From Flectonema sp. DT1601 (lineage: Eukaryota): a stretch of DNA of 64,000 nt. Position 1 is the stretch's first letter. Each line of letters starts with the position of its first letter. The stretch lies in the NCBI GenBank assembly GCA_964019425.1, contig OZ025796.1, forward strand, positions 1,116,001-1,180,000, given 5' to 3'. The notes beneath the pieces are model-generated. The model searched no databases. It was not told where the DNA came from and saw only the letters and a list, made by a program, of their open reading frames with translations. Below are positions 17,938-64,000 of the stretch, one piece after another. Made by a program: the position numbers and the translations under genes.

Positions 17938-19020
17938 CAGGGTGGAGGTGTTCACGATTTTTCACTTTGCTACACGAAAATTCATGATTTTTCACTTAAT
18001 TTTTTGCTGCTTTCTGGTAGTGAAATCCCGTGAAAATGTGTGAAAATGTGTGAATTCTAGTGAAAAAAGTGAGTGATATCCAGATGGTACCGTTGGTGCT
18101 GTGCAATGTCAAACCTGGACAGTTTGCCATACATGTCACTTTGACAACTAAATGGGCATCGCTTGTGCCCAGTGACCCATCACCCTTCCTGACCATCGCT
18201 TGTGGTGAGGTTCCGGACTTTGGACCGGCGCATCGCGTGTGCGGTGGGTTTAATCACTGAGGGGGCTCATTCTCGTTCGGACTGTTCTGTTCTGTAACAA
18301 CCCGACCATGATCATTCAGCAAATATGAGATGTCAATTGTGGCTGCCTCTGACATGTCACGTGCAACCTCTGCCCAAAACTGGAGAAGTTGTCGCGGAGT
18401 GCGATGCTCCGGGAGAATGAGATGAGACGTCTGAGCACACCATTCACAATACTATATTGTGCACACATGAACTCCATGATGTTGCCCATTTCCTCGTTAC
18501 TGAGAGACATCAGGTAAGCGTATGCCCGCCTGCGACGATGAGAGTACTTGATGAGGAGCTTGTTGCGCTGCAAGAATGTGAGAACCCACCTGAGGAATGG
18601 AATACCTCGAAGCGGGCATGATAACACATAGCATGCAAATGCTAAGGTTCCGAAGCGCCCATTCGTAACCTTCTCTTTAAATGGGCACGCCCTAAAAGAG
18701 ATGCGGTGCTTCTTGCGAAGCCAGTAAGCAAACGACCGATTCCCACGTATGAAGAAGCACAGCGTTACTATTGAACGGAGGAAGTCACTGAGGCCAAAGT
18801 ACTTCGCAATCCAGGAGGCAATGCAATGAACTCGGTGTGTAGGCTCCGTGATGAGGCAGATATTCACCCACTTCCACCCTTCAATTCAAAACCAACCCAC
18901 CCACCCCCTGCCGGTGTCCCGTCAGGACCTGGCACTACCTCAGCGCGGTGAACCTGATGAATGTCCTTAGTATCTGTTCTGCCAGTTGTGCGTATTACTT
19001 TATATTCTTTATTCAGGTGG
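17938..19020 (-). mobile_element. Possible degenerate DNA transposon (hAT-like) fragment
   Basis: CAGGGTGG terminus-like sequence followed by clustered TTTCAC/GTGAAA repeats in both orientations (17955-18072). ORF remnant 18316-18867 has THRVHCIA and GRFGT, weakly resembling the hAT CxxH and TRW/F regions. Confidence 0.3.
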
Positions 19021-19467
19021 GTTGAGTTGCCAGGTGAGATTTGGACTGTTAGCTTTTGGCTAAGGCCCTCCCTGAAGAGCAAGAACAAAAAAACTACTCA
19101 CACCTGAAGAAAACATACACAAAGAACACACTGTTAGCTGTGTGTGTATTTTGTGTTTGTCACAACAGGAGAGAAAAGAAAGAATGTCAAGGTTGGTCAC
19201 CTTGCCTATCAACGCACAACATTGGTGGTCTCTACTAGACCCTGAGTGATCCCACTGGATCTCTCATCGTTCATAGTACCTATGTGAAGTTATAAAATCA
19301 AAGGTAAACTATGAACTACAAATGACTTAGCCTGTTATTATAATGCCACAGGCAGGCCCTGCATTCAGCAACTATCCAGCAGTGCTTGGATGTCCTGATC
19401 TTCTTCTAAAAAAAAGAAAGAAAAACAAAACTGTAGCTGGGATCACTCAGGATCAACAGACTACCAA
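19021..19467 (-). mobile_element. Family A non-coding element, truncated copy
   Basis: Near-identical to the other A copies and begins at the shared fixed end (GTTGAGTT..CCAGGTGAG). Strand is inferred. Confidence 0.9.
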
Positions 19468-21510: not shown

Positions 21511-22610
21511 GAGTTAAGTTACCAGGTGAGATTTGGACTGTTAGCTTTTGGCTAAGGCCCTCCCTGAAGAGAGTTGAATTTCCAGGTGAGATTTGGACTG
21601 TTAGCTTTTGGCTAAGGCCCTCCCTGAAGAGCAAGAACAAAAAAACTACTCACACCTGAAGAAAACATACACAAAGAACACACTGTTAGCTGTGTGTGTA
21701 TTTTGTGTTTGTCACAACAGGAGAGAAAAGAAAGAATGTCAAGGTTGGTCACCTTGCCTATCAACGCACAACATTGGTGGTCTCTACTAGACCCTGAGTG
21801 ATCCCACTGGATCTCTCATCGTTCATAGTACCTATGTGAAGTTATAAAATCAAAGGTAAACTATGAACTACAAATGACTTAGCCTGTTATTATAATGCCA
21901 CAGGCAGGCCCTGCATTCAGCAACTATCCAGCAGTGCTAGGATGTCCTGATCTTCTTCTAAAAAAAAGAAAGAAAAACAAAACTGTAGCTGGGATCACTC
22001 AGGATCAACAGACTACCAATGCTACCTGTTGTACTTGCTCACTATGGGGGGTGATGCCAAACACCCAGAAGTACTAAACTGCTTTCCTTCTTGCTGCCCA
22101 GGAGTTTCTGACCAGAACTAATAGAAAATAAAAAGTAGATGGGAAACAATAAAAAGTAAAATGGATATAACTGAAGTTAAACAAGACAAATGAAGTAACA
22201 GACCCGAACAGAAAGAGAATTGTAATAGAAGATTACAAATAAAAAAATGCAAGTATCAACACATGATCAGGATACACCAGCAGCTAACAAACAACATAAA
22301 ATTGAAGATCAGTTGCCAGAGTATTTCAACCATGGTAGAATACTCGCCCCTCTGGCAGGGATTATCCCAGACTTGTCCTTTAATTTAGTTGGACACCATG
22401 GCTTACAACCCTTCCAGAGGGAAGCACCATTATGACTTCTATTTTTTTTCTTCAAGAAAATCATAAGGTGGGAACAAAGAAAAATGCTAAGAGGAACCCC
22501 CTATTAACACCTAAGACATCTAAACTGCAGCCCAGCCTATGCCCAATGCACTAACAGGTCATTCCCTCACACTCAGATCAAAAAATCAAAGTTCAGAGTG
22601 CATCTTAGCG
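21511..22610 (-). mobile_element. Family A insertion in the MULE left TIR (solo ~60-bp terminus plus ~1040-bp copy)
   Basis: Interrupts CCAC|AAAATAG, as shown by the uninterrupted TIRs at 24660 and 43163. Confidence 0.9.
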
Positions 22611-35500: not shown

Positions 35501-37645
35501 ATGGATCATTAAACTCCATGTTAACCTTGACAATAACAAGTGTTGGACAGACCAAGCCTTCTGAGACCCATATAGTGGCATGGCGTCGACTTTTTTTAAA
35601 AAATTCCTGGTAAAAGTGGTCAGGCGCTCTCGCAATTTCTGTTCTTTGGCGTTCGGCTCAAACCAACGCCCGAGGTATTTGAACTCTCCAGCTTCCTGGA
35701 GATTCGTAATCGGAACATTGTTAATCTTCAGGTCCGGGTTAGCTGGTTTCCCTTGTACAAAGCTGTGGGCAATGCATTTCTGGGGTTTCGCTTTCATACC
35801 ACGAGACCAGGAAAGAAACTGTTCGAGCGACTTGATTAGCAATTTTGCCCCCGCCTTTGATGACGTGGTAAGTTGTAAATCATCAGCAAAAGCTGCAACT
35901 AATAGTTGGAGGGATTTATTGTTAAACTCGTAGGCTTCCTGTTGATGAACTGCTAAGGAAAAGAGCAGTAGTTGGAATACCAAATTAAAAAGGGTTGGGG
36001 AGGAAACGCAGCCTTGAAAGACACCAACTTCAAAAGGGATAGTGGGCGTCAGGCCTTCTCCAACTCTGATTTGGACGCGCATGGAGGAATAATACCTTTT
36101 ATAGAAACCGATTATTCTTTCGTGAATTCCGAAATATTTTAAAGCAAAGAAAATTAATTGATGTTTGACTGAGCCGAAAGCATCTGCCAAATCCACCCAG
36201 ACAATTGTTAGGTTTTTCCGGAGAGCTTTCACTTCTTTAAAAATCTCTGAGGTGATCGTGGCATGTTCGATACACCCAGAGACACCTTTCCTAAAGCCTT
36301 TTTGAAAATTAAATTTAGAAAGAGTGTGGTTTGCGACGGCTTCCTGAATAACCGTATTAAAAATTTTCCCGTCGCAGTTGCCCACAGCTATCGGTCTCGT
36401 TTTCGAGATGTCTTTCCCATCGGAGTTGGGCTTTGGGAGCATTGTTACAAATGCTAAGCCCCAACTATCCGGATAGGCCTTGAGTTCGAAAATTCTCTTT
36501 AATACCTTGTAAAGTGCTTCCATAAAAGTTGGGACCTTTTTCCATACAACATAAGGTATGCAATTGGGACCAGGGGCACATTTGTTTTTTTTCTTTGATA
36601 AGAGAATACCAAACTGTTCGAAGCTCGGGAACTGGATATCATCCATTGTCTTGTAGTCAGACTTAGGTAAAAAAGAGGGATGGGTGAAATCAGTTTTTTT
36701 TTTTTCATTGTCACAATAATTGTTTTTAAAATGTTCAATTATTTTTTCCTCTGGAATATCAAGGGAGGGGGGTTGAGGATCTTCTTTTTGGAGTTCTTCT
36801 TTTATGGCAGTAAACGGATTTTGACGAAATTTATCTTGTAATTTTTTGAATAAATTTTTCTTTTCTAAATTCCGATACATTCGGAAAATCCTTTTCATTC
36901 TCGTTCTTGCCTCTTTCCATTTGACAGCGTTCTCTATAGAAGGCCCAGATTTGCGGAGCTCCTGTCTTAGCTGTTTCATTTCCAGACGACATTCAAGTTT
37001 TTCTTGGTCGAGGATGACCTCTTCCCTTGATTTCTGTTTGCGGGGTAAATTCCGCTTTGTTTCTTCAAAGAAACCGCTACATATTTGATAAACCGTTTTG
37101 AGTAGTTTATCAAGTTGGTCGGCAGGTTTTGAAGAGTTTTCTGTTTCGACGGAGAAAGTTTGAAGTTTTTCTGCAGCAGAAACGTCGATGTCCTTCCATT
37201 CAGTTCCAAAAGATCGGAATTTGAGACGAGACGGGTGTAACGGGGTAAAAGTGGGTGTTGTAGAGTTATAAGGAACGAAAGCTGTTTGTGAAGTTTTAAA
37301 ATCTACAGATTCTCCTACAAAGGGAGGTTCCAGGTCTGAATTATTCCCTGTGAGGGGAGACAGAGGTGTACCTTTACATGTACCGTTAACACAGTGTTTC
37401 GCTCTCGTAGCGATACTTTTGAAAAGCTTACCACAATCTGGACAAGGTAAGTGGTAACAATCTTTAACTTGGGAGTGGGTAGATGGGGGAAAACGTGACT
37501 TATAGTCCTTAAATTCCTTACTAAACTTACAGTTACGTCTAAAATGCGCAACTGGACCTTTGAGGTATGTCTCAAAACATAAAGGACATTTGGCTACTAA
37601 AGTTTTATCCCCATCCAGAGCCGATCTCGAAATAGCCTCTTGCAA
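32519..37645 (-). CDS. RLE-type non-LTR retrotransposon polyprotein, HERO-like (zinc fingers, RT, CCHC knuckle, restriction-like endonuclease, long C-terminal extension)
   Basis: N-terminal CPLC..H...C and CPDCGKLF...H. RT motifs APGPNCIPY, RPIAV, QKGF, WVDLADAFGSV, GVFQGCVSSP, FADD and FKYLG. CVLC..HVLTGC, QGRFTWRHDSVL and RPDIFIYS...ILELTCP. Uninterrupted 1708 codons; the true start is uncertain (TTG). Confidence 0.95.
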   Translation of the reverse strand: MQEAISRSALDGDKTLVAKCPLCFETYLKGPVAHFRRNCKFSKEFKDYKSRFPPSTHSQVKDCYHLPCPDCGKLFKSIATRAKHCVNGTCKGTPLSPLTGNNSDLEPPFVGESVDFKTSQTAFVPYNSTTPTFTPLHPSRLKFRSFGTEWKDIDVSAAEKLQTFSVETENSSKPADQLDKLLKTVYQICSGFFEETKRNLPRKQKSREEVILDQEKLECRLEMKQLRQELRKSGPSIENAVKWKEARTRMKRIFRMYRNLEKKNLFKKLQDKFRQNPFTAIKEELQKEDPQPPSLDIPEEKIIEHFKNNYCDNEKKKTDFTHPSFLPKSDYKTMDDIQFPSFEQFGILLSKKKNKCAPGPNCIPYVVWKKVPTFMEALYKVLKRIFELKAYPDSWGLAFVTMLPKPNSDGKDISKTRPIAVGNCDGKIFNTVIQEAVANHTLSKFNFQKGFRKGVSGCIEHATITSEIFKEVKALRKNLTIVWVDLADAFGSVKHQLIFFALKYFGIHERIIGFYKRYYSSMRVQIRVGEGLTPTIPFEVGVFQGCVSSPTLFNLVFQLLLFSLAVHQQEAYEFNNKSLQLLVAAFADDLQLTTSSKAGAKLLIKSLEQFLSWSRGMKAKPQKCIAHSFVQGKPANPDLKINNVPITNLQEAGEFKYLGRWFEPNAKEQKLRERLTTFTRNFLKKVDAMPLYGSQKAWSVQHLLLSRLTWSLMIHDLSLPFAKKMDKIIKPFLKKWWGFVRSANTVILFTGSKNTVGLRHKRVETLYKQAQSIKLDILRSSQDSDMHGVYNVIMEKSSNWSKKFSASAEWERLIKFFSYRSLAKQSAGLGHRLRDLRTTRPDLLKRFEVEATDELLNSLNKLQVQGQWKEWSKCMINDFTWNKVLREGNPAYISFQLKAVTNTLPSQDNLKRWNITNVDQNCVLCGKVNPTLRHVLTGCPVSLTQGRFTWRHDSVLKRIVIFLEELIIKANKRKENLPPPSQTFLKTGENKPLERISKETGELSLANDWVILDDVGDNRLIVPLEVCHVSSSLRPDIFIYSFFAKRALILELTCPNEDRFETSHVLKEKKYLKLRDSIIANGFDCNIFTIEVGVRGNICMDQLNIWTRHIGSPLAPTKALFCECTRIARQCSYVLFQTRNLPTWHSRPLMRSIKEEPATASFIKDGKEIFPVEEVKIHKVTKLKTIEKLTIERSWLEKCFIWQTCYASALSILLIANGSSSPAPSVLLDEDELTGLSLSFSSISSISFQTPPPELMSTGSQTLPADFAIVIRTQSDMGSQTPLYKKKEGKLRLKLSLKCQILENELEQMKERIFYVLFLFYFNAMSASLEKDKQLLNGLPVEIKATNQDPSSLPPAPPVLIIEKDRKEYELLEGVIQRLTAERDESKTSLSALVRQYDLVEDYRKRELANLTQRADLSELALFNYHQRFVLLSNELETKCNEERESKIRLFYTQQEVESLRAARPRMTHFSQQVSPRTPVLYESVAMMKIAKNYLSLFTTTSSLFTPLIKPLIPTLNYITPLCPLASIPPTMPQSEALDRTPTKILRQESHVISVKENTPIARQWSEGRIDLLENYCRAVDDSLETNEKAAELSEQLLDAQLRLSELNHQRCTTHAEQLEQSMMLTGLASDLNAQLALARSQIAALKFQLASWAEGLSPPDTEEHEENETPPRKSERSTLKKRTPPSRYRYNRRRCSADDVHGDSTPL

Positions 37646-38456
37646 AGCCTCGGGGGCTGGGTTGGCTGAGAGATGGTTGCCAGTATCTTTATGACACCGC
37701 CGGCCCGGTGTTTCTTTTTTTTTTTGTTGTGAAGTAGCAATAATAAGAAAAAAAAAAAAAAATAGAAAAGAGAATGGCTCAGAAACAATATCGATGAGTT
37801 AAGATCTTTTTTTTTAAACTATTCCTTTTTTTTTTAATTTCGGGCAGCTAACCCTAGAGTTTTTTTTTGGTAAATACTGTTTAAAGGAAAACGAGCTACG
37901 CTCTAAAACAGAAAAATCGGAGTAACTACTTGTTTATAATATATATTTTGATAAATAATGTGGTTGGCAAATGAATGCCGAAGAGGCAACTTGAGAAAAG
38001 CAATTGGATGAGAAGAAACATTGGGTCTTATAAAGCAAAGGAGATAGAGGGGCCTAAAAAGACCGCAGAGTGGATAGCTCGCAGAGTGGATTAGGAAGAG
38101 AAATAAAAAAGAAAAAGTGCCGATCAAACTACCGTGCAAGTAGACAGGTACACCAAAACGATGGGAGGTGTTAACCTGATGGATAGCGTGAAGGGAAGGC
38201 GAACAGAAACCTTCAAACTAAACGATGGCATCTAAAGGTTTTCGACTACTTGCTGAAAGTTTCAATGTTCAACACGTTTACCCTTCAAAAGAAATGCAGT
38301 AAGGATACTGGTACCTACACACGGTATGTAGAGGAGCTCGCTATGCAACTCGTCAGTGACGGGACGTCGAGAGACAAGACAACCAATACTACATCTACTA
38401 TTGACTCGGGTTCGCACTTTTCACACATGTTCAGCACCACTGAGCACTATCCATCG

Positions 38457-39915
38457 GAGTTGAGTTTACCAGGTGAGATTTGGACTGTTAGCTTTTGGCT
38501 AAGGCCCTCCCTGAAGAGCAAGAACAAAAAAACTACTCACACCTGAAGAAAACATACACAAAGAACACACTGTAAGCTGTGTGTGTATTTTGTGTTTGTC
38601 ACAACAGGAGAGAAAAGAAAGAATGTCAAGGTTGGTCACCTTGCCTATCAACGCACAACATTGGTGGTCTCTACTAGACCCTGAGTGATCCCACTGGATC
38701 TCTCATCGTTCATAGTACCCTGTGTGAAGTTATAAAATCAAAGGTAAACTATGAACTACAAATGACTTAGCCTGTTATTATAATGCCACAGGCAGGCCCT
38801 GCATTCAGCAACTATCCAGCAGTGCTAGGATGTCCTGATCTTCTTCTAAAAAAAAGAAAGAAAAACAAAACTGTAGCTGGGATCACTCAGGATCAACAGA
38901 CTACCAATGCTACCTGTTGTACTTGCTCACTATGGGGGGTGATGCCAAACACCCAGAAGTACTTAACTACTTTCCTTCTTGCTGCCCAGGAGTTTCTGAC
39001 CAGAACTAATAGAAAATAAAAAGTAGATGGGAAATAATAAAAAGTAAAATGAATATAACTGAAGTTAAACAAGACAAATGAGGTAACAGACCAGAACAGA
39101 TAGAGAATAAAAATAAAAGATATAGGCAAGAATGATTGTAGTGAAAGATTACAAATAAAAAAAATGCAAGATCAACACATGATCAAGATACACCAGCAGC
39201 TAACAAACAACATAAAATTGAAGATCAGTTGCCAGAGTATTTCAACCATGGTAGAATACTCGCCCCTCTGGCAGGGATTATCCCAGACTTGTCCTTTAAT
39301 CTAGTTGGACACCATGGCTTACAACCCTTCCAGAGGGAAGCACCATTATGACTTCTATTTTTTTTCTTCAAGAAAATCATAAGGTGGGAACAAAGAAAAA
39401 TGCTAAGAGGAACCCCTTATTAACACCTAAGACATCTAAACTGCAGCCCAGCTTATGCCCAATGCACTAACAGGTCATTCCCTCACACTCAGATCAAAAA
39501 ATCAAAGTTCAGAGTGCATCTTAGCGTGAATGAGAGAATTTCCTCCCGCTTTTTTTGAACAAAAGGGATAGGAGAAGGGATAGAAAACGAACATAACAAT
39601 AAGATTCTAAGTGAGGAACACTTAGCAGAAATACTTAGCAGCTTTTAAGGAGCTGAAAAGCAAAAAAAAAATCTAAGTGAGAAACACTTAGTAGAAACAC
39701 TTTGTAGCTAATTGAGCTGAAAATAAAAAAATAAAAAAATTTCTAAGTGAGAGATACTTAGCAACTTTTAGAACAAATATTTCAGTAAATAACCTGTTGA
39801 AATGGTAGTTAATGTAACCATTACAGGTTTGATGCCAATACTGACAAAGACTGAGTTGAGTTTACCAGGTGAGATTTGGACTGTTAGCTTTTGGCTAAGG
39901 CCCTCCCTGAAGAGC
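38457..39915 (-). mobile_element. Full-unit family A element (1396 bp plus 63-bp terminal direct repeat)
   Basis: 38457-38519 is repeated at 39853-39915. It is inserted in the piggyBac ORF between HYPSE and the Cys-rich domain. Confidence 0.92.
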
Positions 39916-40444: not shown

Positions 40445-40844
40445 AATTTCGATAAAGTGGGAAGTAACGGACTGGGAGCTTTTGGCTCCTGCCCTATTCC
40501 CGATGTAAACTTTCTTTTTATTTTTTTTTTTTTTTTTAACAGGCCCAAAGGGCGACAATGATGGTTGCTGACCAAGGAATAATATTCAAATGAATTTTCG
40601 TTTCAAAGAAACGAACAGAATTAAGAGAGAGGTAGAGAAAAAAAAAAAAAAAAAAAAGAAAGAATAGAAAAAAAATATGAAGAGGAAATAATCAAACATG
40701 AAAAAAAAAAGAAAAAAAAAATATAAATAAAAAACGTTGTATGAAAAAGGAAAAAAAAGAAAAAAAAAAAAAAAAGACCAGAAAAGGAAAGAGAAAATGA
40801 AAAGGTATAATATTATTGTGGGGATATGAGGATAGCAGGGAGAT

Positions 40845-40879
<35 letters not shown>

Positions 40880-42630
40880 TTATTATTTAAAAAAAGGAAA
40901 CAATCAGTTTAGCGTCTCGATCAGGACGGAAAATAGAAATTAATCGACATAGTCGATCGATAGAAAAAAAAACAATGATAACATTGTTTATTCCTTTTTT
41001 TTTTTTTTTTTTTTTATTCTTTTTATTTATTTTTAAAGAAAAAACAATCAGTTTAGCGTCTTGACCAGGACGGAAAATAGAAAGTGATCGACATAGTCGA
41101 TCGATAAAAAGACAATGATAACATTGTTTATTCTTTTTTTTTTTTTTTTTTTAAATTCTTTTTATTTATTTTTAAAGAAAAAAAAACGGAAAATAAAAAT
41201 TAGTCGACAAAGTCGAACGATAAAAAAAAACAATGATAAGAGTTGAATTTCCAGGTGAGATTTGGACTGTTAGCTTTTGGCTAAGGCCCTCCCTGAAGAG
41301 CAAGAACAAAAAAACTACTCACACCTGAAGAAAACATACACAAAGAACACACTGTAAGCTGTGTGTGTATTTTGTGTTTGTCACAACAGGAGAGAAAAGA
41401 AAGAATGTCAAGGTTGGTCACCTTGCCTATCAACGCACAACATTGGTGGTCTCTACTAGACCCTGAGTGATCCCACTGGATCTCTCATCGTTCATAGTAC
41501 CCTGTGTGAAGTTATAAAATCAAAGGTAAACTATGAACTACAAATGACTTAGCCTGTTATTATAATGCCACAGGCAGGCCCTGCATTCAGCAACTATCCA
41601 GCAGTGCTTGGATGTCCTGATCTTCTTCTAAAAAAAAGAAAGAAAAACAAAACTGTAGCTGGGATCACTCAGGATCAACAGACTACCAATGCTACCTGTT
41701 GTACTTGCTCACTATGGGGGGTGATGCCAAACACCCAGAAGTACTAAACTACTTTCCTTCTTGCTGCCCAGGAGTTTCTGACCAGAACTAATAGAAAATA
41801 AAAAGTAGATGGGAAACAATAAAAAGTAAAATGGATATAACTGAAGTTAAACAAGACAAATGAAGTAACAGACCAGAACAGAAAGAGAATTGTAATAGAA
41901 GATTACAAATAAGAAAATGCAAGTATCAACACATAATCAAGATACACCAGCAGCTAACAAACAACATAAAATTGAAGATCAGTTGCCAGAGTATTTCAAC
42001 CATGGTAGAATACTCGCCCCTCTGGCAGGGATTATCCCAGACTTGTCCTTTAATTTAGTTGGACACCATGGTTGTTTATTCTTTTTTTTTTTTGTTTTTT
42101 TTTATATTCTTTTTTATTAATTTTGAAAAAAAAACAATCAGTTTAGCGTCTTGACCAGGACGGAAAATAGAAAGTGATCGACATAGTCGATCGATAAAAA
42201 GACAATGATAACATTGTTTATTCTTTTTTTTTTTTTTTTTTTAAATTCTTTTTATTTATTTTTAAAGAAAAAAAAACGGAAAATAAAAATTAGTCGACAA
42301 AGTCGAACGATAAAAAAAAAACAATGATAACATTGTTTATTCTTTTTTTTTTTGTTTTTTTTTATATTCTTTTTTATTAATTTTGAAAAAAAAACAATCA
42401 GTTTAGCGTCTTGACCAGGACGGAAAATAGAAAGTAATCGACATAGTCGATCGATAAAAAAAAAACAATGATAACATTGTTTACTCTTTTTTTTTTTTTT
42501 TTTTAAATTCTTTTTATTTTAAAAAGAAAAAAAACGGAAAATAGAAATTAGTCAACAAAGTCGAACGATAAAAAAAAAACAATGATAACATTGTTTATTC
42601 TTTTTTTTTTATTTTTTTATATTCTTTTAT
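40445..42630 (-). mobile_element. Family D copy (fixed terminus plus satellite B), containing an A insertion
   Basis: Starts with the same AATTTCGATAAAGTGGGAAG end as 26822. Confidence 0.85.
41240..42071 (-). mobile_element. Family A truncated copy inserted in satellite B
   Basis: Interrupts CAATGATAA|(CA)TTGTTTATTC and has the same fixed end. Confidence 0.9.
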
Positions 42631-45087: not shown

Positions 45088-46247
45088 GTTGAATTTCCAG
45101 GTGAGATTTGGACTGTTAGCTTTTGGCTAAGGCCCTCCCTGAAGAGCAAGAACAAAAAAACTACTCACACCTGAAGAAAACATACACAAAGAACACACTG
45201 TTAGCTGTGTGTGTATTTTGTGTTTGTCACAACAGGAGAGAAAAGAAAGAATGTCAAGGTTGGTCACCTTGCCTATCAACGCACAACATTGGTGGTCTCT
45301 ACTAGACCCTGAGTGATCCCACTGGATCTCTCATCGTTCATAGTACCTATGTGAAGTTATAAAATCAAAGGTAAACTATGAACTACAAATGACTTAGCCT
45401 GTTATTATAATGCCACAGGCAGGCCCTGCATTCAGCAACTATCCAGCAGTGCTAGGATGTCCTGATCTTCTTCTAAAAAAAAGAAAGAAAAACAAAACTG
45501 TAGCTGGGATCACTCAGGATCAACAGACTACCAATGCTACCTGTTGTACTTGCTCACTATGGGGGGTGATGCCAAACACCCAGAAGTACTAAACTGCTTT
45601 CCTTCTTGCTGCCCAGGAGTTTCTGACCAGAACTAATAGAAAATAAAAAGTAGATGGGAAACAATAAAAAGTAAAATGGATATAACTGAAGTTAAACAAG
45701 ACAAATGAAGTAACAGACCCGAACAGAAAGAGAATTGTAATAGAAGATTACAAATAAAAAAATGCAAGTATCAACACATGATCAGGATACACCAGCAGCT
45801 AACAAACAACATAAAATTGAAGATCAGTTGCCAGAGTATTTCAACCATGGTAGAATACTCGCCCCTCTGGCAGGGATTATCCCAGACTTGTCCTTTAATT
45901 TAGTTGGACACCATGGCTTACAACCCTTCCAGAGGGAAGCACCATTATGACTTCTATTTTTTTTCTTCAAGAAAATCATAAGGTGGGAACAAAGAAAAAT
46001 GCTAAGAGGAACCCCCTATTAACACCTAAGACATCTAAACTGCAGCCCAGCCTATGCCCAATGCACTAACAGGTCATTCCCTCACACTCAGATCAAAAAA
46101 TCAAAGTTCAGAGTGCATCTTAGCGTGAATGAGAGAATTTCCTCCCGCTTATTTTGAACAAAAGGGATAGGAGAAGGGATAGAAAACGAACATAAAAATA
46201 AAATTCTAAGTGAGAAACACTTAGCAGAAACACTTAGCAGCTTTTAA
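45088..46247 (-). mobile_element. Family A insertion with an 11-bp TSD
   Basis: CCGTTTACTGC occurs at 45077-45087 and 46248-46258 but is single-copy at this site in the intact element. Confidence 0.93.
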
Positions 46248-51651: not shown

Positions 51652-54600
51652 TGTTTCTTCATTTTTTTACATTAATAATTACATTTTGTTCAAAAAGAAA
51701 AAAAAAGAAAAAAGATTTCATATTAGAAACCAGGAAACTAGGTTAACACTTAGTTAAAATTAAGACCGGTTAGTCAGTTTAAGGTCTTGTCTAGGACCAA
51801 CATTCTTGTTTAACTTCAGTTATATTCATTTTACTTTTTATTGTTTCCCATCTACTTTTTATTTTCTATTAGTTCTGGTCAGAAACTCCTGGGCAGCAAG
51901 AAGGAAAGTAGTTAAGTACTTCTGGGTGTTTGGCATCACCCCCCATAGTGAGCAAGTACAACAGGTAGCATTGGTAGTCTGTTGATCCTGAGTGATCCCA
52001 GCTACAGTTTTGTTTTTCTTTCTTTTTTTTAGAAGAAGATCAGGACATTCAAGCACTGCTGGATAGTTGCTGAATGCAGGGCCTGCCTGTGGCATTATAA
52101 TAACAGGCTAAGTCATTTGTAGTTCATAGTTTACCTTTGATTTTATAACTTCACATAGGGTACTATGAACGATGAGAGATCCAGTGGGATCACTCAGGGT
52201 CTAGTAGAGACCACCAATGTTGTGCGTTGATAGGCAAGGTGACCAACCTTGACATTCTTTCTTTTCTCTCCTGTTGTGACAAACACAAAATACACACACA
52301 GCTTACAGTGTGTTCTTTGTGTATGTTTTCTTCAGGTGTGAGTAGTTTTTTTGTTCTTGCTCTTCAGGGAGGGCCTTAGCCAAAAGCTAACAGTCCAAAT
52401 CTCACCTGGTAAACTCAACTCAGTCTTTGTCAGTATTGGCATCAAACCTGTAATGGTTACATTAACTACCATTTCAACAGGTTATTTACTGAAATATTTG
52501 TTCTAAAAGTTGCTAAGTATCTCTCACTTAGAAATTTTTTTATTTTTTTATTTTCAGCTCAATTAGCTACAAAGTGTTTCTACTAAGTGTTTCTCACTTA
52601 GATTTTTTTTTTGCTTTTCAGCTCCTTAAAAGCTGCTAAGTATTTCTGCTAAGTGTTTCTCACTTAGAATCTTATTGTTATGTTCGTTTTCTATCCCTTC
52701 TCCTATCCCTTTTGTTCAAAAAAAGCGGGAGGAAATTCTCTCATTCATGCTAAGATGCACTCTGAACTTTGATTTTTTTGATCTGAGTGTGAGGGAATGA
52801 CCTGTTAGTGCATTGGGCATAAGCTGGGCTGCAGTTTAGATGTCTTAGGTGTTAATAAGGGGTTCCTCTTAGCATTTTTCTTTGTTACCACCTTATGATT
52901 TTCTTGAAGAAAAAAAATAGAAGTCATAATGGTGCTTCCCTCTGGAAGGGTTGTAAGCCATGGTGTCCAACTAAATTAAAGGACAAGTCTGGGATAATCC
53001 CTGCCAGAGGGGCGAGTATTCTACCATGGTTGAAATACTCTGGCAACTGATCTTCAATTTTATGTTGTTTGTTAGCTGCTGGTGTATCTCGATCATGTGT
53101 TGATACTTGCATTTTTTTTTTTATTTGTAATCTTTTACTACAATAACTCTTGCAATTATCTTTTCTTTTTTATTCTCTATCTGTTCTGGTCTGTTTCTTC
53201 ATTTTTTTACATTAATAATTACATTTTGTTCAAAAAGAAAAAAAAAGAAAAAAGATTTCATATTAGAAACCAGGAAACTAGGTTAACACTTAGTTAAAAT
53301 TAAGACCGGTTAGTCAGTTTAAGGTCTTGTCTAGGACCAACATTCTTGTTTAACTTCAGTTATATTCATTTTACTTTTTATTGTTTCCCATCTACTTTTT
53401 ATTTTCTATTAGTTCTGGTCAGAAACTCCTGGGCAGCAAGAAGGAAAGTAGTTAAGTACTCCTGGGTGTTTGGCATCACCCCCCATAGTGAGCAAGTACA
53501 ACAGGTAGCATTGGTAGTCTGTTGATCCTGAGTGATCCCAGCTACAGTTTTGTTTTTCTTTCTTTTTTTTAGAAGAAGATCAGGACATTCAAGCACTGCT
53601 GGATAGTTGCTGAATGCAGGGCCTGCCTGTGGCATTATAATAACAGGCTAAGTCATTTGTAGTTCATAGTTTACCTTTGATTTTATAACTTCACATAGGG
53701 TACTATGAACGATGAGAGATCCAGTGGGATCACTCAGGGTCTAGTAGAGACCACCAATGTTGTGCGTTGATAGGCAAGGTGACCAACCTTGACATTCTTT
53801 CTTTTCTCTCCTGTTGTGACAAACACAAAATACACACACAGCTTACAGTGTGTTCTTTGTGTATGTTTTCTTCAGGTGTGAGTAGTTTTTTTGTTCTTGC
53901 TCTTCAGGGAGGGCCTTAGCCAAAAGCTAACAGTCCAAATCTCACCTGGTAAACTCAACTCAGTCTTTGTCAGTATTGGCATCAAACCTGTAATGGTTAC
54001 ATTAACTACCATTTCAACAGGTTATTTACTGAAATATTTGTTCTAAAAGTTGCTAAGTATCTCTCACTTAGAAATTTTTTTATTTTTTTATTTTCAGCTC
54101 AATTAGCTACAAAGTGTTTCTACTAAGTGTTTCTCACTTAGATTTTTTTTTTGCTTTTCAGCTCCTTAAAAGCTGCTAAGTATTTCTGCTAAGTGTTTCT
54201 CACTTAGAATCTTATTGTTATGTTCGTTTTCTATCCCTTCTCCTATCCCTTTTGTTCAAAAAAAGCGGGAGGAAATTCTCTCATTCATGCTAAGATGCAC
54301 TCTGAACTTTGATTTTTTTGATCTGAGTGTGAGGGAATGACCTGTTAGTGCATTGGGCATAAGCTGGGCTGCAGTTTAGATGTCTTAGGTGTTAATAAGG
54401 GGTTCCTCTTAGCATTTTTCTTTGTTACCACCTTATGATTTTCTTGAAGAAAAAAAATAGAAGTCATAATGGTGCTTCCCTCTGGAAGGGTTGTAAGCCA
54501 TGGTGTCCAACTAAATTAAAGGACAAGTCTGGGATAATCCCTGCCAGAGGGGCGAGTATTCTACCATGGTTGAAATACTCTGGCAACTGATCTTCAATTT

Positions 54601-57600
54601 TATGTTGTTTGTTAGCTGCTGGTGTATCTCGATCATGTGTTGATACTTGCATTTTTTTTTTTATTTGTAATCTTTTACTACAATAACTCTTGCAATTATC
54701 TTTTCTTTTTTATTCTCTATCTGTTCTGGTCTGTTTCTTCATTTTTTTACATTAATAATTACATTTTGTTCAAAAAGAAAAAAAAAGAAAAAAGATTTCA
54801 TATTAGAAACCAGGAAACTAGGTTAACACTTAGTTAAAATTAAGACCGGTTAGTCAGTTTAAGGTCTTGTCTAGGACCAACATTCTTGTTTAACTTCAGT
54901 TATATTCATTTTACTTTTTATTGTTTCCCATCTACTTTTTATTTTCTATTAGTTCTGGTCAGAAACTCCTGGGCAGCAAGAAGGAAAGTAGTTAAGTACT
55001 CCTGGGTGTTTGGCATCACCCCCCATAGTGAGCAAGTACAACAGGTAGCATTGGTAGTCTGTTGATCCTGAGTGATCCCAGCTACAGTTTTGTTTTTCTT
55101 TCTTTTTTTTAGAAGAAGATCAGGACATTCAAGCACTGCTGGATAGTTGCTGAATGCAGGGCCTGCCTGTGGCATTATAATAACAGGCTAAGTCATTTGT
55201 AGTTCATAGTTTACCTTTGATTTTATAACTTCACATAGGGTACTATGAACGATGAGAGATCCAGTGGGATCACTCAGGGTCTAGTAGAGACCACCAATGT
55301 TGTGCGTTGATAGGCAAGGTGACCAACCTTGACATTCTTTCTTTTCTCTCCTGTTGTGACAAACACAAAATACACACACAGCTTACAGTGTGTTCTTTGT
55401 GTATGTTTTCTTCAGGTGTGAGTAGTTTTTTTGTTCTTGCTCTTCAGGGAGGGCCTTAGCCAAAAGCTAACAGTCCAAATCTCACCTGGTAAACTCAACT
55501 CAGTCTTTGTCAGTATTGGCATCAAACCTGTAATGGTTACATTAACTACCATTTCAACAGGTTATTTACTGAAATATTTGTTCTAAAAGTTGCTAAGTAT
55601 CTCTCACTTAGAAATTTTTTTATTTTTTTATTTTCAGCTCAATTAGCTACAAAGTGTTTCTACTAAGTGTTTCTCACTTAGATTTTTTTTTTGCTTTTCA
55701 GCTCCTTAAAAGCTGCTAAGTATTTCTGCTAAGTGTTTCTCACTTAGAATCTTATTGTTATGTTCGTTTTCTATCCCTTCTCCTATCCCTTTTGTTCAAA
55801 AAAAGCGGGAGGAAATTCTCTCATTCATGCTAAGATGCACTCTGAACTTTGATTTTTTTGATCTGAGTGTGAGGGAATGACCTGTTAGTGCATTGGGCAT
55901 AAGCTGGGCTGCAGTTTAGATGTCTTAGGTGTTAATAAGGGGTTCCTCTTAGCATTTTTCTTTGTTACCACCTTATGATTTTCTTGAAGAAAAAAAATAG
56001 AAGTCATAATGGTGCTTCCCTCTGGAAGGGTTGTAAGCCATGGTGTCCAACTAAATTAAAGGACAAGTCTGGGATAATCCCTGCCAGAGGGGCGAGTATT
56101 CTACCATGGTTGAAATACTCTGGCAACTGATCTTCAATTTTATGTTGTTTGTTAGCTGCTGGTGTATCTCGATCATGTGTTGATACTTGCATTTTTTTTT
56201 TTATTTGTAATCTTTTACTACAATAACTCTTGCAATTATCTTTTCTTTTTTATTCTCTATCTGTTCTGGTCTGTTTCTTCATTTTTTTACATTAATAATT
56301 ACATTTTGTTCAAAAAGAAAAAAAAAGAAAAAAGATTTCATATTAGAAACCAGGAAACTAGGTTAACACTTAGTTAAAATTAAGACCGGTTAGTCAGTTT
56401 AAGGTCTTGTCTAGGACCAACATTCTTGTTTAACTTCAGTTATATTCATTTTACTTTTTATTGTTTCCCATCTACTTTTTATTTTCTATTAGTTCTGGTC
56501 AGAAACTCCTGGGCAGCAAGAAGGAAAGTAGTTAAGTACTTCTGGGTGTTTGGCATCACCCCCCATAGTGAGCAAGTACAACAGGTAGCATTGGTAGTCT
56601 GTTGATCCTGAGTGATCCCAGCTACAGTTTTGTTTTTCTTTCTTTTTTTTAGAAGAAGATCAGGACATTCAAGCACTGCTGGATAGTTGCTGAATGCAGG
56701 GCCTGCCTGTGGCATTATAATAACAGGCTAAGTCATTTGTAGTTCATAGTTTACCTTTGATTTTATAACTTCACATAGGGTACTATGAACGATGAGAGAT
56801 CCAGTGGGATCACTCAGGGTCTAGTAGAGACCACCAATGTTGTGCGTTGATAGGCAAGGTGACCAACCTTGACATTCTTTCTTTTCTCTCCTGTTGTGAC
56901 AAACACAAAATACACACACAGCTTACAGTGTGTTCTTTGTGTATGTTTTCTTCAGGTGTGAGTAGTTTTTTTGTTCTTGCTCTTCAGGGAGGGCCTTAGC
57001 CAAAAGCTAACAGTCCAAATCTCACCTGGTAAACTCAACTCAGTCTTTGTCAGTATTGGCATCAAACCTGTAATGGTTACATTAACTACCATTTCAACAG
57101 GTTATTTACTGAAATATTTGTTCTAAAAGTTGCTAAGTATCTCTCACTTAGAAATTTTTTTATTTTTTTATTTTCAGCTCAATTAGCTACAAAGTGTTTC
57201 TACTAAGTGTTTCTCACTTAGATTTTTTTTTTGCTTTTCAGCTCCTTAAAAGCTGCTAAGTATTTCTGCTAAGTGTTTCTCACTTAGAATCTTATTGTTA
57301 TGTTCGTTTTCTATCCCTTCTCCTATCCCTTTTGTTCAAAAAAAGCGGGAGGAAATTCTCTCATTCATGCTAAGATGCACTCTGAACTTTGATTTTTTTG
57401 ATCTGAGTGTGAGGGAATGACCTGTTAGTGCATTGGGCATAAGCTGGGCTGCAGTTTAGATGTCTTAGGTGTTAATAAGGGGTTCCTCTTAGCATTTTTC
57501 TTTGTTACCACCTTATGATTTTCTTGAAGAAAAAAAATAGAAGTCATAATGGTGCTTCCCTCTGGAAGGGTTGTAAGCCATGGTGTCCAACTAAATTAAA

Positions 57601-60600
57601 GGACAAGTCTGGGATAATCCCTGCCAGAGGGGCGAGTATTCTACCATGGTTGAAATACTCTGGCAACTGATCTTCAATTTTATGTTGTTTGTTAGCTGCT
57701 GGTGTATCTCGATCATGTGTTGATACTTGCATTTTTTTTTTTATTTGTAATCTTTTACTACAATAACTCTTGCAATTATCTTTTCTTTTTTATTCTCTAT
57801 CTGTTCTGGTCTGTTTCTTCATTTTTTTACATTAATAATTACATTTTGTTCAAAAAGAAAAAAAAAGAAAAAAGATTTCATATTAGAAACCAGGAAACTA
57901 GGTTAACACTTAGTTAAAATTAAGACCGGTTAGTCAGTTTAAGGTCTTGTCTAGGACCAACATTCTTGTTTAACTTCAGTTATATTCATTTTACTTTTTA
58001 TTGTTTCCCATCTACTTTTTATTTTCTATTAGTTCTGGTCAGAAACTCCTGGGCAGCAAGAAGGAAAGTAGTTAAGTACTTCTGGGTGTTTGGCATCACC
58101 CCCCATAGTGAGCAAGTACAACAGGTAGCATTGGTAGTCTGTTGATCCTGAGTGATCCCAGCTACAGTTTTGTTTTTCTTTCTTTTTTTTAGAAGAAGAT
58201 CAGGACATTCAAGCACTGCTGGATAGTTGCTGAATGCAGGGCCTGCCTGTGGCATTATAATAACAGGCTAAGTCATTTGTAGTTCATAGTTTACCTTTGA
58301 TTTTATAACTTCACATAGGGTACTATGAACGATGAGAGATCCAGTGGGATCACTCAGGGTCTAGTAGAGACCACCAATGTTGTGCGTTGATAGGCAAGGT
58401 GACCAACCTTGACATTCTTTCTTTTCTCTCCTGTTGTGACAAACACAAAATACACACACAGCTTACAGTGTGTTCTTTGTGTATGTTTTCTTCAGGTGTG
58501 AGTAGTTTTTTTGTTCTTGCTCTTCAGGGAGGGCCTTAGCCAAAAGCTAACAGTCCAAATCTCACCTGGTAAACTCAACTCAGTCTTTGTCAGTATTGGC
58601 ATCAAACCTGTAATGGTTACATTAACTACCATTTCAACAGGTTATTTACTGAAATATTTGTTCTAAAAGTTGCTAAGTATCTCTCACTTAGAAATTTTTT
58701 TATTTTTTTATTTTCAGCTCAATTAGCTACAAAGTGTTTCTACTAAGTGTTTCTCACTTAGATTTTTTTTTTGCTTTTCAGCTCCTTAAAAGCTGCTAAG
58801 TATTTCTGCTAAGTGTTTCTCACTTAGAATCTTATTGTTATGTTCGTTTTCTATCCCTTCTCCTATCCCTTTTGTTCAAAAAAAGCGGGAGGAAATTCTC
58901 TCATTCATGCTAAGATGCACTCTGAACTTTGATTTTTTTGATCTGAGTGTGAGGGAATGACCTGTTAGTGCATTGGGCATAAGCTGGGCTGCAGTTTAGA
59001 TGTCTTAGGTGTTAATAAGGGGTTCCTCTTAGCATTTTTCTTTGTTACCACCTTATGATTTTCTTGAAGAAAAAAAATAGAAGTCATAATGGTGCTTCCC
59101 TCTGGAAGGGTTGTAAGCCATGGTGTCCAACTAAATTAAAGGACAAGTCTGGGATAATCCCTGCCAGAGGGGCGAGTATTCTACCATGGTTGAAATACTC
59201 TGGCAACTGATCTTCAATTTTATGTTGTTTGTTAGCTGCTGGTGTATCTCGATCATGTGTTGATACTTGCATTTTTTTTTTTATTTGTAATCTTTTACTA
59301 CAATAACTCTTGCAATTATCTTTTCTTTTTTATTCTCTATCTGTTCTGGTCTGTTTCTTCATTTTTTTACATTAATAATTACATTTTGTTCAAAAAGAAA
59401 AAAAAAGAAAAAAGATTTCATATTAGAAACCAGGAAACTAGGTTAACACTTAGTTAAAATTAAGACCGGTTAGTCAGTTTAAGGTCTTGTCTAGGACCAA
59501 CATTCTTGTTTAACTTCAGTTATATTCATTTTACTTTTTATTGTTTCCCATCTACTTTTTATTTTCTATTAGTTCTGGTCAGAAACTCCTGGGCAGCAAG
59601 AAGGAAAGTAGTTAAGTACTTCTGGGTGTTTGGCATCACCCCCCATAGTGAGCAAGTACAACAGGTAGCATTGGTAGTCTGTTGATCCTGAGTGATCCCA
59701 GCTACAGTTTTGTTTTTCTTTCTTTTTTTTAGAAGAAGATCAGGACATTCAAGCACTGCTGGATAGTTGCTGAATGCAGGGCCTGCCTGTGGCATTATAA
59801 TAACAGGCTAAGTCATTTGTAGTTCATAGTTTACCTTTGATTTTATAACTTCACATAGGGTACTATGAACGATGAGAGATCCAGTGGGATCACTCAGGGT
59901 CTAGTAGAGACCACCAATGTTGTGCGTTGATAGGCAAGGTGACCAACCTTGACATTCTTTCTTTTCTCTCCTGTTGTGACAAACACAAAATACACACACA
60001 GCTTACAGTGTGTTCTTTGTGTATGTTTTCTTCAGGTGTGAGTAGTTTTTTTGTTCTTGCTCTTCAGGGAGGGCCTTAGCCAAAAGCTAACAGTCCAAAT
60101 CTCACCTGGTAAACTCAACTCAGTCTTTGTCAGTATTGGCATCAAACCTGTAATGGTTACATTAACTACCATTTCAACAGGTTATTTACTGAAATATTTG
60201 TTCTAAAAGTTGCTAAGTATCTCTCACTTAGAAATTTTTTTATTTTTTTATTTTCAGCTCAATTAGCTACAAAGTGTTTCTACTAAGTGTTTCTCACTTA
60301 GATTTTTTTTTTGCTTTTCAGCTCCTTAAAAGCTGCTAAGTATTTCTGCTAAGTGTTTCTCACTTAGAATCTTATTGTTATGTTCGTTTTCTATCCCTTC
60401 TCCTATCCCTTTTGTTCAAAAAAAGCGGGAGGAAATTCTCTCATTCATGCTAAGATGCACTCTGAACTTTGATTTTTTTGATCTGAGTGTGAGGGAATGA
60501 CCTGTTAGTGCATTGGGCATAAGCTGGGCTGCAGTTTAGATGTCTTAGGTGTTAATAAGGGGTTCCTCTTAGCATTTTTCTTTGTTACCACCTTATGATT

Positions 60601-63600
60601 TTCTTGAAGAAAAAAAATAGAAGTCATAATGGTGCTTCCCTCTGGAAGGGTTGTAAGCCATGGTGTCCAACTAAATTAAAGGACAAGTCTGGGATAATCC
60701 CTGCCAGAGGGGCGAGTATTCTACCATGGTTGAAATACTCTGGCAACTGATCTTCAATTTTATGTTGTTTGTTAGCTGCTGGTGTATCTCGATCATGTGT
60801 TGATACTTGCATTTTTTTTTTTATTTGTAATCTTTTACTACAATAACTCTTGCAATTATCTTTTCTTTTTTATTCTCTATCTGTTCTGGTCTGTTTCTTC
60901 ATTTTTTTACATTAATAATTACATTTTGTTCAAAAAGAAAAAAAAAGAAAAAAGATTTCATATTAGAAACCAGGAAACTAGGTTAACACTTAGTTAAAAT
61001 TAAGACCGGTTAGTCAGTTTAAGGTCTTGTCTAGGACCAACATTCTTGTTTAACTTCAGTTATATTCATTTTACTTTTTATTGTTTCCCATCTACTTTTT
61101 ATTTTCTATTAGTTCTGGTCAGAAACTCCTGGGCAGCAAGAAGGAAAGTAGTTAAGTACTTCTGGGTGTTTGGCATCACCCCCCATAGTGAGCAAGTACA
61201 ACAGGTAGCATTGGTAGTCTGTTGATCCTGAGTGATCCCAGCTACAGTTTTGTTTTTCTTTCTTTTTTTTAGAAGAAGATCAGGACATTCAAGCACTGCT
61301 GGATAGTTGCTGAATGCAGGGCCTGCCTGTGGCATTATAATAACAGGCTAAGTCATTTGTAGTTCATAGTTTACCTTTGATTTTATAACTTCACATAGGG
61401 TACTATGAACGATGAGAGATCCAGTGGGATCACTCAGGGTCTAGTAGAGACCACCAATGTTGTGCGTTGATAGGCAAGGTGACCAACCTTGACATTCTTT
61501 CTTTTCTCTCCTGTTGTGACAAACACAAAATACACACACAGCTTACAGTGTGTTCTTTGTGTATGTTTTCTTCAGGTGTGAGTAGTTTTTTTGTTCTTGC
61601 TCTTCAGGGAGGGCCTTAGCCAAAAGCTAACAGTCCAAATCTCACCTGGTAAACTCAACTCAGTCTTTGTCAGTATTGGCATCAAACCTGTAATGGTTAC
61701 ATTAACTACCATTTCAACAGGTTATTTACTGAAATATTTGTTCTAAAAGTTGCTAAGTATCTCTCACTTAGAAATTTTTTTATTTTTTTATTTTCAGCTC
61801 AATTAGCTACAAAGTGTTTCTACTAAGTGTTTCTCACTTAGATTTTTTTTTTGCTTTTCAGCTCCTTAAAAGCTGCTAAGTATTTCTGCTAAGTGTTTCT
61901 CACTTAGAATCTTATTGTTATGTTCGTTTTCTATCCCTTCTCCTATCCCTTTTGTTCAAAAAAAGCGGGAGGAAATTCTCTCATTCATGCTAAGATGCAC
62001 TCTGAACTTTGATTTTTTTGATCTGAGTGTGAGGGAATGACCTGTTAGTGCATTGGGCATAAGCTGGGCTGCAGTTTAGATGTCTTAGGTGTTAATAAGG
62101 GGTTCCTCTTAGCATTTTTCTTTGTTACCACCTTATGATTTTCTTGAAGAAAAAAAATAGAAGTCATAATGGTGCTTCCCTCTGGAAGGGTTGTAAGCCA
62201 TGGTGTCCAACTAAATTAAAGGACAAGTCTGGGATAATCCCTGCCAGAGGGGCGAGTATTCTACCATGGTTGAAATACTCTGGCAACTGATCTTCAATTT
62301 TATGTTGTTTGTTAGCTGCTGGTGTATCTCGATCATGTGTTGATACTTGCATTTTTTTTTTTATTTGTAATCTTTTACTACAATAACTCTTGCAATTATC
62401 TTTTCTTTTTTATTCTCTATCTGTTCTGGTCTGTTTCTTCATTTTTTTACATTAATAATTACATTTTGTTCAAAAAGAAAAAAAAAGAAAAAAGATTTCA
62501 TATTAGAAACCAGGAAACTAGGTTAACACTTAGTTAAAATTAAGACCGGTTAGTCAGTTTAAGGTCTTGTCTAGGACCAACATTCTTGTTTAACTTCAGT
62601 TATATTCATTTTACTTTTTATTGTTTCCCATCTACTTTTTATTTTCTATTAGTTCTGGTCAGAAACTCCTGGGCAGCAAGAAGGAAAGTAGTTAAGTACT
62701 TCTGGGTGTTTGGCATCACCCCCCATAGTGAGCAAGTACAACAGGTAGCATTGGTAGTCTGTTGATCCTGAGTGATCCCAGCTACAGTTTTGTTTTTCTT
62801 TCTTTTTTTTAGAAGAAGATCAGGACATTCAAGCACTGCTGGATAGTTGCTGAATGCAGGGCCTGCCTGTGGCATTATAATAACAGGCTAAGTCATTTGT
62901 AGTTCATAGTTTACCTTTGATTTTATAACTTCACATAGGGTACTATGAACGATGAGAGATCCAGTGGGATCACTCAGGGTCTAGTAGAGACCACCAATGT
63001 TGTGCGTTGATAGGCAAGGTGACCAACCTTGACATTCTTTCTTTTCTCTCCTGTTGTGACAAACACAAAATACACACACAGCTTACAGTGTGTTCTTTGT
63101 GTATGTTTTCTTCAGGTGTGAGTAGTTTTTTTGTTCTTGCTCTTCAGGGAGGGCCTTAGCCAAAAGCTAACAGTCCAAATCTCACCTGGTAAACTCAACT
63201 CAGTCTTTGTCAGTATTGGCATCAAACCTGTAATGGTTACATTAACTACCATTTCAACAGGTTATTTACTGAAATATTTGTTCTAAAAGTTGCTAAGTAT
63301 CTCTCACTTAGAAATTTTTTTATTTTTTTATTTTCAGCTCAATTAGCTACAAAGTGTTTCTACTAAGTGTTTCTCACTTAGATTTTTTTTTTGCTTTTCA
63401 GCTCCTTAAAAGCTGCTAAGTATTTCTGCTAAGTGTTTCTCACTTAGAATCTTATTGTTATGTTCGTTTTCTATCCCTTCTCCTATCCCTTTTGTTCAAA
63501 AAAAGCGGGAGGAAATTCTCTCATTCATGCTAAGATGCACTCTGAACTTTGATTTTTTTGATCTGAGTGTGAGGGAATGACCTGTTAGTGCATTGGGCAT

Positions 63601-64000
63601 AAGCTGGGCTGCAGTTTAGATGTCTTAGGTGTTAATAAGGGGTTCCTCTTAGCATTTTTCTTTGTTACCACCTTATGATTTTCTTGAAGAAAAAAAATAG
63701 AAGTCATAATGGTGCTTCCCTCTGGAAGGGTTGTAAGCCATGGTGTCCAACTAAATTAAAGGACAAGTCTGGGATAATCCCTGCCAGAGGGGCGAGTATT
63801 CTACCATGGTTGAAATACTCTGGCAACTGATCTTCAATTTTATGTTGTTTGTTAGCTGCTGGTGTATCTCGATCATGTGTTGATACTTGCATTTTTTTTT
63901 TTATTTGTAATCTTTTACTACAATAACTCTTGCAATTATCTTTTCTTTTTTATTCTCTATCTGTTCTGGTCTGTTTCTTCATTTTTTTACATTAATAATT
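51652..64000 (+). repeat. Head-to-tail tandem array of a 1540-bp unit (family A plus ~140-bp insert), 8 units, running to the window edge
   Basis: ORF track entries recur every 1540 bp (51859, 53399, 54939 ... 62639), and the units are nearly identical. Confidence 0.98.

Follow-up and report, generated by a model that had tools for sequence, protein, structure and literature searches.

Family A, a non-coding repeat that occurs as a terminally redundant monomer, a solo terminus, truncated copies and a tandem array, is probably the non-autonomous partner of an R2-like retrotransposon and inserted by target-primed reverse transcription. We base this reading on the window, a 64,000-nucleotide stretch of Flectonema sp. 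DT1601 DNA (contig OZ025796.1), in which the A monomer and the R2-like element lie 370 bp apart. A preliminary description had seen in A a non-coding element copied from longer-than-unit or circular templates and reminiscent of Penelope pseudo-LTRs or retrozymes, and had pointed to Penelope or Helitron enzymes as candidates for the same terminus. Mobility is borne out by empty insertion sites; kinship with Penelope elements, retrozymes or Helitrons is not supported. The A terminus is common to the R2-like non-LTR retrotransposon, likely the motor of A, which that description had overlooked.

Family A Copies Have One Fixed End

The family A unit (window 38457-39852, 1396 bp) is designated M, and positions in it are given as M1 and onward. 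In the monomer, which sits in a remnant of a piggyBac-like transposase, the 63 bp at 38457-38519 recur at 39853-39915 with 63/63 identity, as described earlier, and the identity ends on both flanks. Untemplated bases stand on either side (G at 38456, TGCG at 39916-39919). The solo terminus of about 60 bp and the truncated copies of the earlier account were likewise recovered, the latter numbering four (Table 1). All six dispersed copies have left ends at M1-M3, where a short AC-rich tail differs from copy to copy. Their opposite ends vary (M62, 451, 861, 1070, 1192 and 1459), and a comparison of six copies over about 439 positions gave 0-4 differences. Target-primed reverse transcription leaves this pattern of one fixed end and variable truncation, the fixed end being the RNA 3′ end. 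The RNA of A is therefore presumed to be the minus strand. Insertion of mitochondrial minicircles was rejected because the A end is fixed.

Table 1. Positions in the window of family A copies and of features of the R2-like element
Feature	Positions	Strand	Remarks
Family A full monomer	38457..39915	-	1396-bp unit plus 63-bp repeat; minus is the presumed RNA sense
Fixed (presumed 3′) end with predicted hairpin	38457..38519	-	common part about 38472-38511
Second identical 63-bp terminus, presumed 5′ end	39853..39915	-	four untemplated bases adjoin
Solo terminus M1-62	21511..21571	-	end-to-end join with next A copy
Truncated A copy M1-1070	21571..22610	-	abuts solo terminus; in element C terminal inverted repeat
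Truncated A copy to M451	19018..19467	-	head-to-head with 5′-lacking R2-like copy
Truncated A copy M1-861	41240..42071	-	within ~140-bp satellite
Truncated A copy M3-1192	45088..46247	-	inside second RT copy
Head-to-tail array	51652..64000	+	8.0 units of 1540 bp; extends past window end
Candidate autonomous partner, restriction-like-endonuclease non-LTR retrotransposon	26821..38086	-	11.3 kb
Open 1759-codon frame	32519..37798	-	zinc fingers, RT, CCHC knuckle, endonuclease motifs
Partner 3′ terminus with hairpin common to A	26821..26884	-	
Second common segment	31379..31486	-	partner 3′ region, 76% identical to A M542-657, same orientation

The longest stop-to-stop frame of the A unit is 92 codons, so coding capacity is absent, in agreement with the earlier statement that A holds no credible ORF. 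Rfam gave no match to A at gathering score (three chance-level matches at E up to 10), and ARAGORN called 0 tRNAs. The presumed RNA strand lacks an A or B box of Pol III promoters; two loose B-box matches lie on the other strand. The absence of a recognisable hammerhead also stands: two CTGAAGA cores on M are without stem II plus GAA, the other strand has none, Rfam found none, and HDV-like folds numbered 0, the hammerhead and HDV descriptors having been used without a positive control.

Several other candidates were rejected. A spliced-leader RNA array was dismissed, as short spliced-leader and telomere motifs matched A at a single 8-mer, which lies in the array. On the plus strand, a tRNA-Phe-like half (a D-arm-like stem, then CTGAAGA) has no T-arm and no ARAGORN call, and the partner end is also without that motif. 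Near M55 stands a polypyrimidine-CAG acceptor, but its position disagrees with the boundary at M62-63.

Inside A we noted a 14-bp inverted repeat (38660-38700 and 38878-38910) and a 66-bp tandem at 39598-39763. A contig of sequencing run X2 (window 38457-38746) joins M290 back to M1 via 576 other letters, and it is possible that it represents a shorter A relative with a different interior.

Dispersed Copies Are Insertions

Four A insertions have empty sites. The copy at 45088-46247 is flanked by an 11-bp target duplication (45077-45087 and 46248-46258), and an intact RT copy supplies the empty site. At the solo terminus with its neighbour 21571-22610, 1 bp was lost, and both other copies (2/2) of the element C repeat are empty. 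At 41240-42071, 2 bp were lost; unbroken satellite is found in 30/33 matches to the left flank. For the monomer, a depth-2 contig of run X5 represents the empty site with one base between 38455 and 39920, equivalent to the loss of 1 bp; this extra base would bring the flanking frames ...HYPS and IFGAAKQC... into register. Eight runs were compared, and a lack of flank cover was not taken as proof. Cover by X1 (39% read) was not genuine, and X4 came out in fragments; an X2 contig leading from 39727 to 38556 was not counted as a bridge, having 30 letters on one side.

The A junctions thus amount to +11, -1, -1 and -2 bp. Of the junction types listed earlier, the 11-bp duplication and the short losses are confirmed, and a 3-bp loss was not found. 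Nor could the 3-bp microhomology be reproduced: the solo junction has one G in common with its neighbour, the three bases at 19468-19470 match neither flank, and no microhomology with the targets was found at the variable ends of A. Empty sites with an 11-bp duplication or a loss of 1-2 bp rule out segmental duplication, and the earlier view of A as a mobile element is sustained, its mobility being recent.

Outside records give the same picture. A search with the translated terminus gave ten candidate proteins, and 10/10 carry the A terminus; in nine, other sequence is joined within about three codons of M1, and the tenth (P0052) has the native head-to-tail junction. An exact 24-mer search of metagenome contigs returned 0 loci. 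Outside A insertions in different contexts are seen on P0054, P0055, P0057 and P0058, the contexts being a gene that weakly resembles endonuclease VII (E 0.006), the apparent C-terminus of another retrotransposon (by eye), an inverted 5′ piece (P0057) and A within another A copy. In the window, the stretch 19018-24294 holds a truncated A copy head-to-head with an RT copy lacking its 5′ part, and protein P0027 hints at a second such case through a 6-residue match only. The head-to-head join could stem from two-sided priming or from insertion with deletion.

An R2-Like Element Is the Candidate Partner

The candidate partner is flanked by a 10-bp target duplication (26811-26820 and 38087-38096) and interrupts a piggyBac-like frame that is continuous across the duplication (WIR/KRNK); it is therefore a single insertion. 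The continuity of the piggyBac-like element follows from the frame, from a PF13843 match upstream in it, and from piggyBac-like motifs in its pieces. Pfam gave no match for the two piggyBac pieces beside the 10-bp duplication, and for the piece after A it gave a transposase zinc finger at no better than E 0.01.

Read on the minus strand, the partner consists of the 1759-codon frame, a 3′ region, a satellite (30960-27230) and a 411-bp block. The frame encodes, in this order, N-terminal zinc fingers, the RT, a CCHC knuckle, RH / RPD / E / KX2KY and a C-terminal extension; from CCHC to KX2KY these are motifs of restriction-like-endonuclease LINEs, as set out in part of PMC5678591. Pfam identified RVT_1 and zf-RVT, and the best PDB matches are R2 proteins (E 2e-32); the ESM Atlas offered unnamed RT clusters only. 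The protein cluster has 235 members; among the 15 of them listed, eight span the RT-to-extension join, all in the window form, and seven have the same terminal residue. The extension continues for ~560 residues past the endonuclease, is native to the family and has no match in Pfam. The first ATG of the frame is codon 274, downstream of two zinc fingers, which suggests a non-AUG start or other processing.

The partner terminus recurs at the ends of truncated copies at 40434-42628 (-) and 47029-48511 (+). Junctions of partner copies (+10, 0 or -1, and -1 bp) are of the same types as those of A. Terminal redundancy was not found in the partner itself. The head-plus-satellite block meets RT copies at differing points (24294, 30960, 49890 and P0010), and it could be a separate passenger caught by template jumps rather than a true 3′ UTR. 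The satellite is AT-rich with a repeat of ~140 bp, lies within the partner 3′ region (window 27230-30960), and is also present at 24315-24659, 25037-25900, 40847-43162, 47037-48116, 49891-50100 and 50759-51631. Because it is contained in the R2-like 3′ region, the scattered arrays are probably 5′-truncated retrotransposon copies; the LINE is then probably spreading a satellite from its 5.7-kb 3′ region.

A and the R2-Like Element Have a Terminal Signal in Common

Beyond A itself, the core of its terminus has three exact recurrences; all lie 30-45 bp from an end of the 411-bp block, which in each case adjoins the ~140-bp satellite. Comparison of the A 63-mer with the last 70 nt of the partner gave a score of 47, which 1/5000 shuffles reached. 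When 9218 non-A windows were ranked, the first 11 places all went to partner ends. These score 47-50 and the best background window 42, so the sequence likeness is modest; in a blastn comparison of A with the entire partner, the terminus was not among the reported matches.

On the RNA strand, the A and partner ends are both predicted to form a 13-pair hairpin with a CAAAA loop, at a nearly equal distance from the fixed end. This hairpin is 100% paired in 7/7 rows, against 30-50% in slid controls, the structure having been derived from the very sequences scored. Three pairs are changed on both sides; since the seven rows represent two sequence types, these double changes count as one comparison. 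Compared with shuffles, the stability of the A hairpin is unexceptional (z -1.0 to -1.5) and that of the partner hairpin is greater (z -2.7 to -2.8). The second common segment (Table 1) has an E of 9e-18 against the 11.3-kb element. In two outside copies, P0059 with an A end and P0025 with a partner end, the RT frame is interrupted at points that differ by two codons. A degenerate form of the hairpin core was found elsewhere at 55 metagenome and two viral loci; the stem closes in 7/57 and the next helix forms in 0/57, for which reason we regard them all as chance matches.

Given an end hairpin like that of the partner, copying of A by the partner enzyme is likely, rather than by a Penelope enzyme or via a ribozyme circle. 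The best-surviving alternative, unlikely in our view, would class A and the head-plus-satellite block with MRC1 as Penelope-like elements that are non-autonomous and served by an unseen Penelope-type RT, the R2-like element having got its end by a template jump. Partial tandems and the inverted 5′ piece of P0057 are typical of Penelope elements and speak against the R2-like partner; together with the pseudo-LTR, head-to-tail multicopy arrangement and 5′ truncation, they agree with the portion of PMC8557442 that treats these elements. According to the same portion, Naiad and most Chlamys elements are without hammerheads, and internal RT initiation at an AC-rich stem-loop is described for a Penelope element in a part of PMC11167929. 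The varying points at which the head block meets RT copies also suit this alternative. However, the sole coding element seen with this terminus is R2-like and bounded by its 10-bp duplication, the six frames of the window contain no GIY-YIG-type motif, and the optional tail of 30-40 bp is absent, the ends falling within M1-M3. The D. papillatum genome paper does not mention Penelope in its main text (0 occurrences).

The Tandem Array and Self-Closing Contigs

The tandem array claimed earlier is present, with 8.0 units from 51652, though the unit is 1540 bp and not 1396 bp. Each array unit comprises A and ~140 bp of pieces that are 78-95% like the partner 3′ region. This insert is absent from 4/4 dispersed copies spanning its site and was not reported in run contigs. 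The left edge of the array lies 13 bp from the insert edge, and the junction sequence resembles the partner D repeat. Array identity is 99.97%: comparison of seven full units revealed one differing position only, and one variant restricted to two adjacent units fits stepwise duplication. The array unit is chimeric and looks locally amplified, likely through DNA-level expansion of a partial tandem in place; DNA-level amplification is described for some MoTeR arrays in a section of PMC7367193.

In 5/8 runs, one self-closing contig of about one unit runs across the unit boundary, and these contigs show that family A is present in other samples. They and the near-identity of the array units could be read as signs that A replicates through circular RNA or DNA by a retrozyme-like rolling circle, with arrays copying the circle directly. 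We consider this improbable. The 63-bp repeat, being longer than the assembly word (as judged from roughly 30-letter overlaps between contig pieces), would close such loops alone, with no circle or array needed. A hammerhead or HDV motif is missing, and the insert found only in the array, the position of the array edge and the variant confined to neighbouring units all point to local amplification. Of the templates proposed earlier, a circular one is not supported; a longer-than-unit one is plausible, as the monomer, the array and P0052, an outside protein, all have the native head-to-tail junction.

It is more doubtful still that A is a host tandem gene or satellite transcribed on the plus strand from M1, whose dispersed copies would be snRNA-like, 3′-truncated retropseudogenes. 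High apparent abundance and close conservation in other runs, the extra G before M1 in the monomer and a donor-like CAG/GTGAG at M14-21 would suit such a gene, but the partner ORF sets the orientation, with the hairpin at its 3′ end on the strand opposite M; moreover, the variable ends are without target microhomology, and Rfam and tRNA matches are absent. Lastly, segmental duplication or assembly error as the source of the A copies, for which the 99.97% identity of the array as assembled might be cited, can practically be dismissed, being refuted for the dispersed copies by different flanks, the four empty sites and the target duplication, and opposed by nine further junctions on outside records.

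A Model for Mobilisation of A by the R2-Like Protein

If A is the passenger of the R2-like element, the R2-like protein would bind the predicted 3′ hairpin common to the two and copy the minus-strand RNA of A into new sites by target-primed reverse transcription. Transcripts that read through head-to-tail copies would tend to have their 5′ end 62-63 nt upstream of the unit boundary, generated by a tandem promoter or by a cut. A complete cDNA would then bear the terminus twice, giving the monomer; if copying began at the 5′ hairpin copy, or on an RNA of 62 nt, and the enzyme then jumped end to end to another template, the solo terminus joined to a further copy would result. For the array of the window, a partial tandem would have expanded in place at the DNA level. 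The monomer and the solo terminus alike break off at M62-63, suggestive of a defined RNA 5′ end (n=2 events). Untemplated addition and template jumping by the R2 RT are documented in PMC8857657 and PMC3414825; the four untemplated bases of the monomer and the end-to-end join of the solo terminus fit such R2-type behaviour. We infer from sequence that A is transcribed and mobilised in trans by the partner protein. The RNA strand, the protein binding and the account of the redundancy are likewise what we infer.

The fixed redundancy of 62-63 nt, with a hairpin at both ends, is unusual and potentially a new part. We entertain, as a possible though doubtful extension, that an R2-type enzyme starts at either A hairpin and transfers between the identical 62-nt ends in the manner of the retroviral R region, which would yield monomers, solos and seamless multimers alike. 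If this is true, linear RNA would suffice, with no circle or ribozyme, and A would be a passenger that forms satellites and makes an R2-like machine behave like an LTR or Penelope element.

With A as a passenger of the R2-like element, pseudo-LTRs, solo termini and ribozyme-less arrays do not necessarily indicate Penelope elements or retrozymes, as an R2-like enzyme can carry them. The pair would represent a natural covariation experiment, and the hairpin of ~40 nt would be a candidate for the minimal handle used by the RT of an R2 relative that is non-site-specific and has an open frame. It would also be a passenger-partner pair described in a group with barely annotated transposons; the D. 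papillatum genome paper calls for rigorous transposon identification that includes non-coding regions. Among the literature matches listed, none describes such an element in diplonemids; the supplements of PMC10161547 may bear on its novelty.

Comparison with Known Elements

EhLINE1 of Entamoeba histolytica has a restriction-like endonuclease. EhSINE1 has no ORF and ~70 bp of 3′ end in common with this LINE, and resembles A in its weak or missing Pol III boxes and internal short repeats (PMC2996970). Unlike EhSINE1, A is 1.4 kb long, terminally redundant, arranged in head-to-tail arrays and often without target duplication, and its likeness to the partner lies in structure more than in sequence. 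In Magnaporthe oryzae, MoTeR2 is the non-coding partner of MoTeR1, with a putative restriction-like endonuclease and a 77-bp common 3′ end; the arrays are head-to-tail, as in A, and some are amplified at the DNA level, whereas a common 5′ end of 860 bp, telomere targets and telomere tracts between units set MoTeR2 apart (PMC7367193). A has no common 5′ end, is dispersed and has seamless junctions. Like these two systems, A is non-coding, has a 3′ end in common with its partner (seen in two sequence types only) and shows a fixed 3′ end, variable 5′ truncation and partner-like junctions; the partner combines RT, CCHC and RH / PD-E / KX2KY in an open frame.

UnaSINE is a tRNA-headed SINE of a different LINE group. 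Like A, UnaSINE and UnaL2 have a common 3′ stem with an internal loop, which is needed for retrotransposition (PMC1636434); unlike A, they show no terminal redundancy. A strict SINE assignment is disfavoured, as a Pol III head derived from tRNA, 5S or 7SL with A and B boxes is absent from A. The R2 SIDEs of Drosophila resemble A in being non-Pol III and in keeping a 3′ RNA structure, show template jumps and untemplated bases in vivo, and differ by a 5′ HDV-like ribozyme and insertion into 28S rDNA (PMC3414825); A is without a match to the partner 5′ end. HeT-A is, like A, non-autonomous and head-to-tail, and its 3′ sequence serves the next copy as part of an LTR-like unit; it differs in encoding Gag and in being telomeric and polyadenylated (PMC5537684). 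The HeT-A tandem promoter is the nearest model, by analogy, for the 63-nt redundancy, which would make it a putative promoter in A.

MRC1-type Penelope-like elements and non-LTR retrozymes have in common with A the pseudo-LTR, tandem multicopy form and 5′ truncation (PMC8557442; bioRxiv 10.64898/2026.07.22.740005), and A can be said to have Penelope-like anatomy (PMC8557442, PMC11167929, PMC4209133), with no Penelope partner in view. By contrast with them, its 3′ end matches the R2-like element of the window, the 30-40-bp tail is missing from 6/6 dispersed copies, and no hammerhead stands in each unit or LTR. Elements of the TRIM/LTR class have TG...CA ends and a constant duplication of 4-6 bp; A ends in GAG...AGC and its junctions vary. 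Helitrons have TC...CTRR ends and insert without duplication; the ends of A differ, and an 11-bp duplication is present. Retrotransposon clades of trypanosomatids, treated in part in PMC12278014, provide context.

Setting of the Window

The portion of the window from 19 to 64 kb is a nest of mobile elements. A degenerate piggyBac-like element (25904-40380), with TTAA flanks and inverted ends, is split by the R2-like element and by A. Element C is non-coding, has terminal inverted repeats of ~47 bp and occurs at 21492-23771, 24660-24741 and 43163-43793; a tRNA-like stretch near 22700 was noted by eye (ARAGORN made no call), and large-subunit rRNA fragments were matched by Rfam at 23366-23755 (E 1e-10). 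The host is likely a diplonemid, a marine protist: the window encodes an Era-like GTPase with 56% identity to a protein of Flectonema neradi and 31% to one of Diplonema japonicum, and the long frames between 3.4 and 17.9 kb all lie on one strand.
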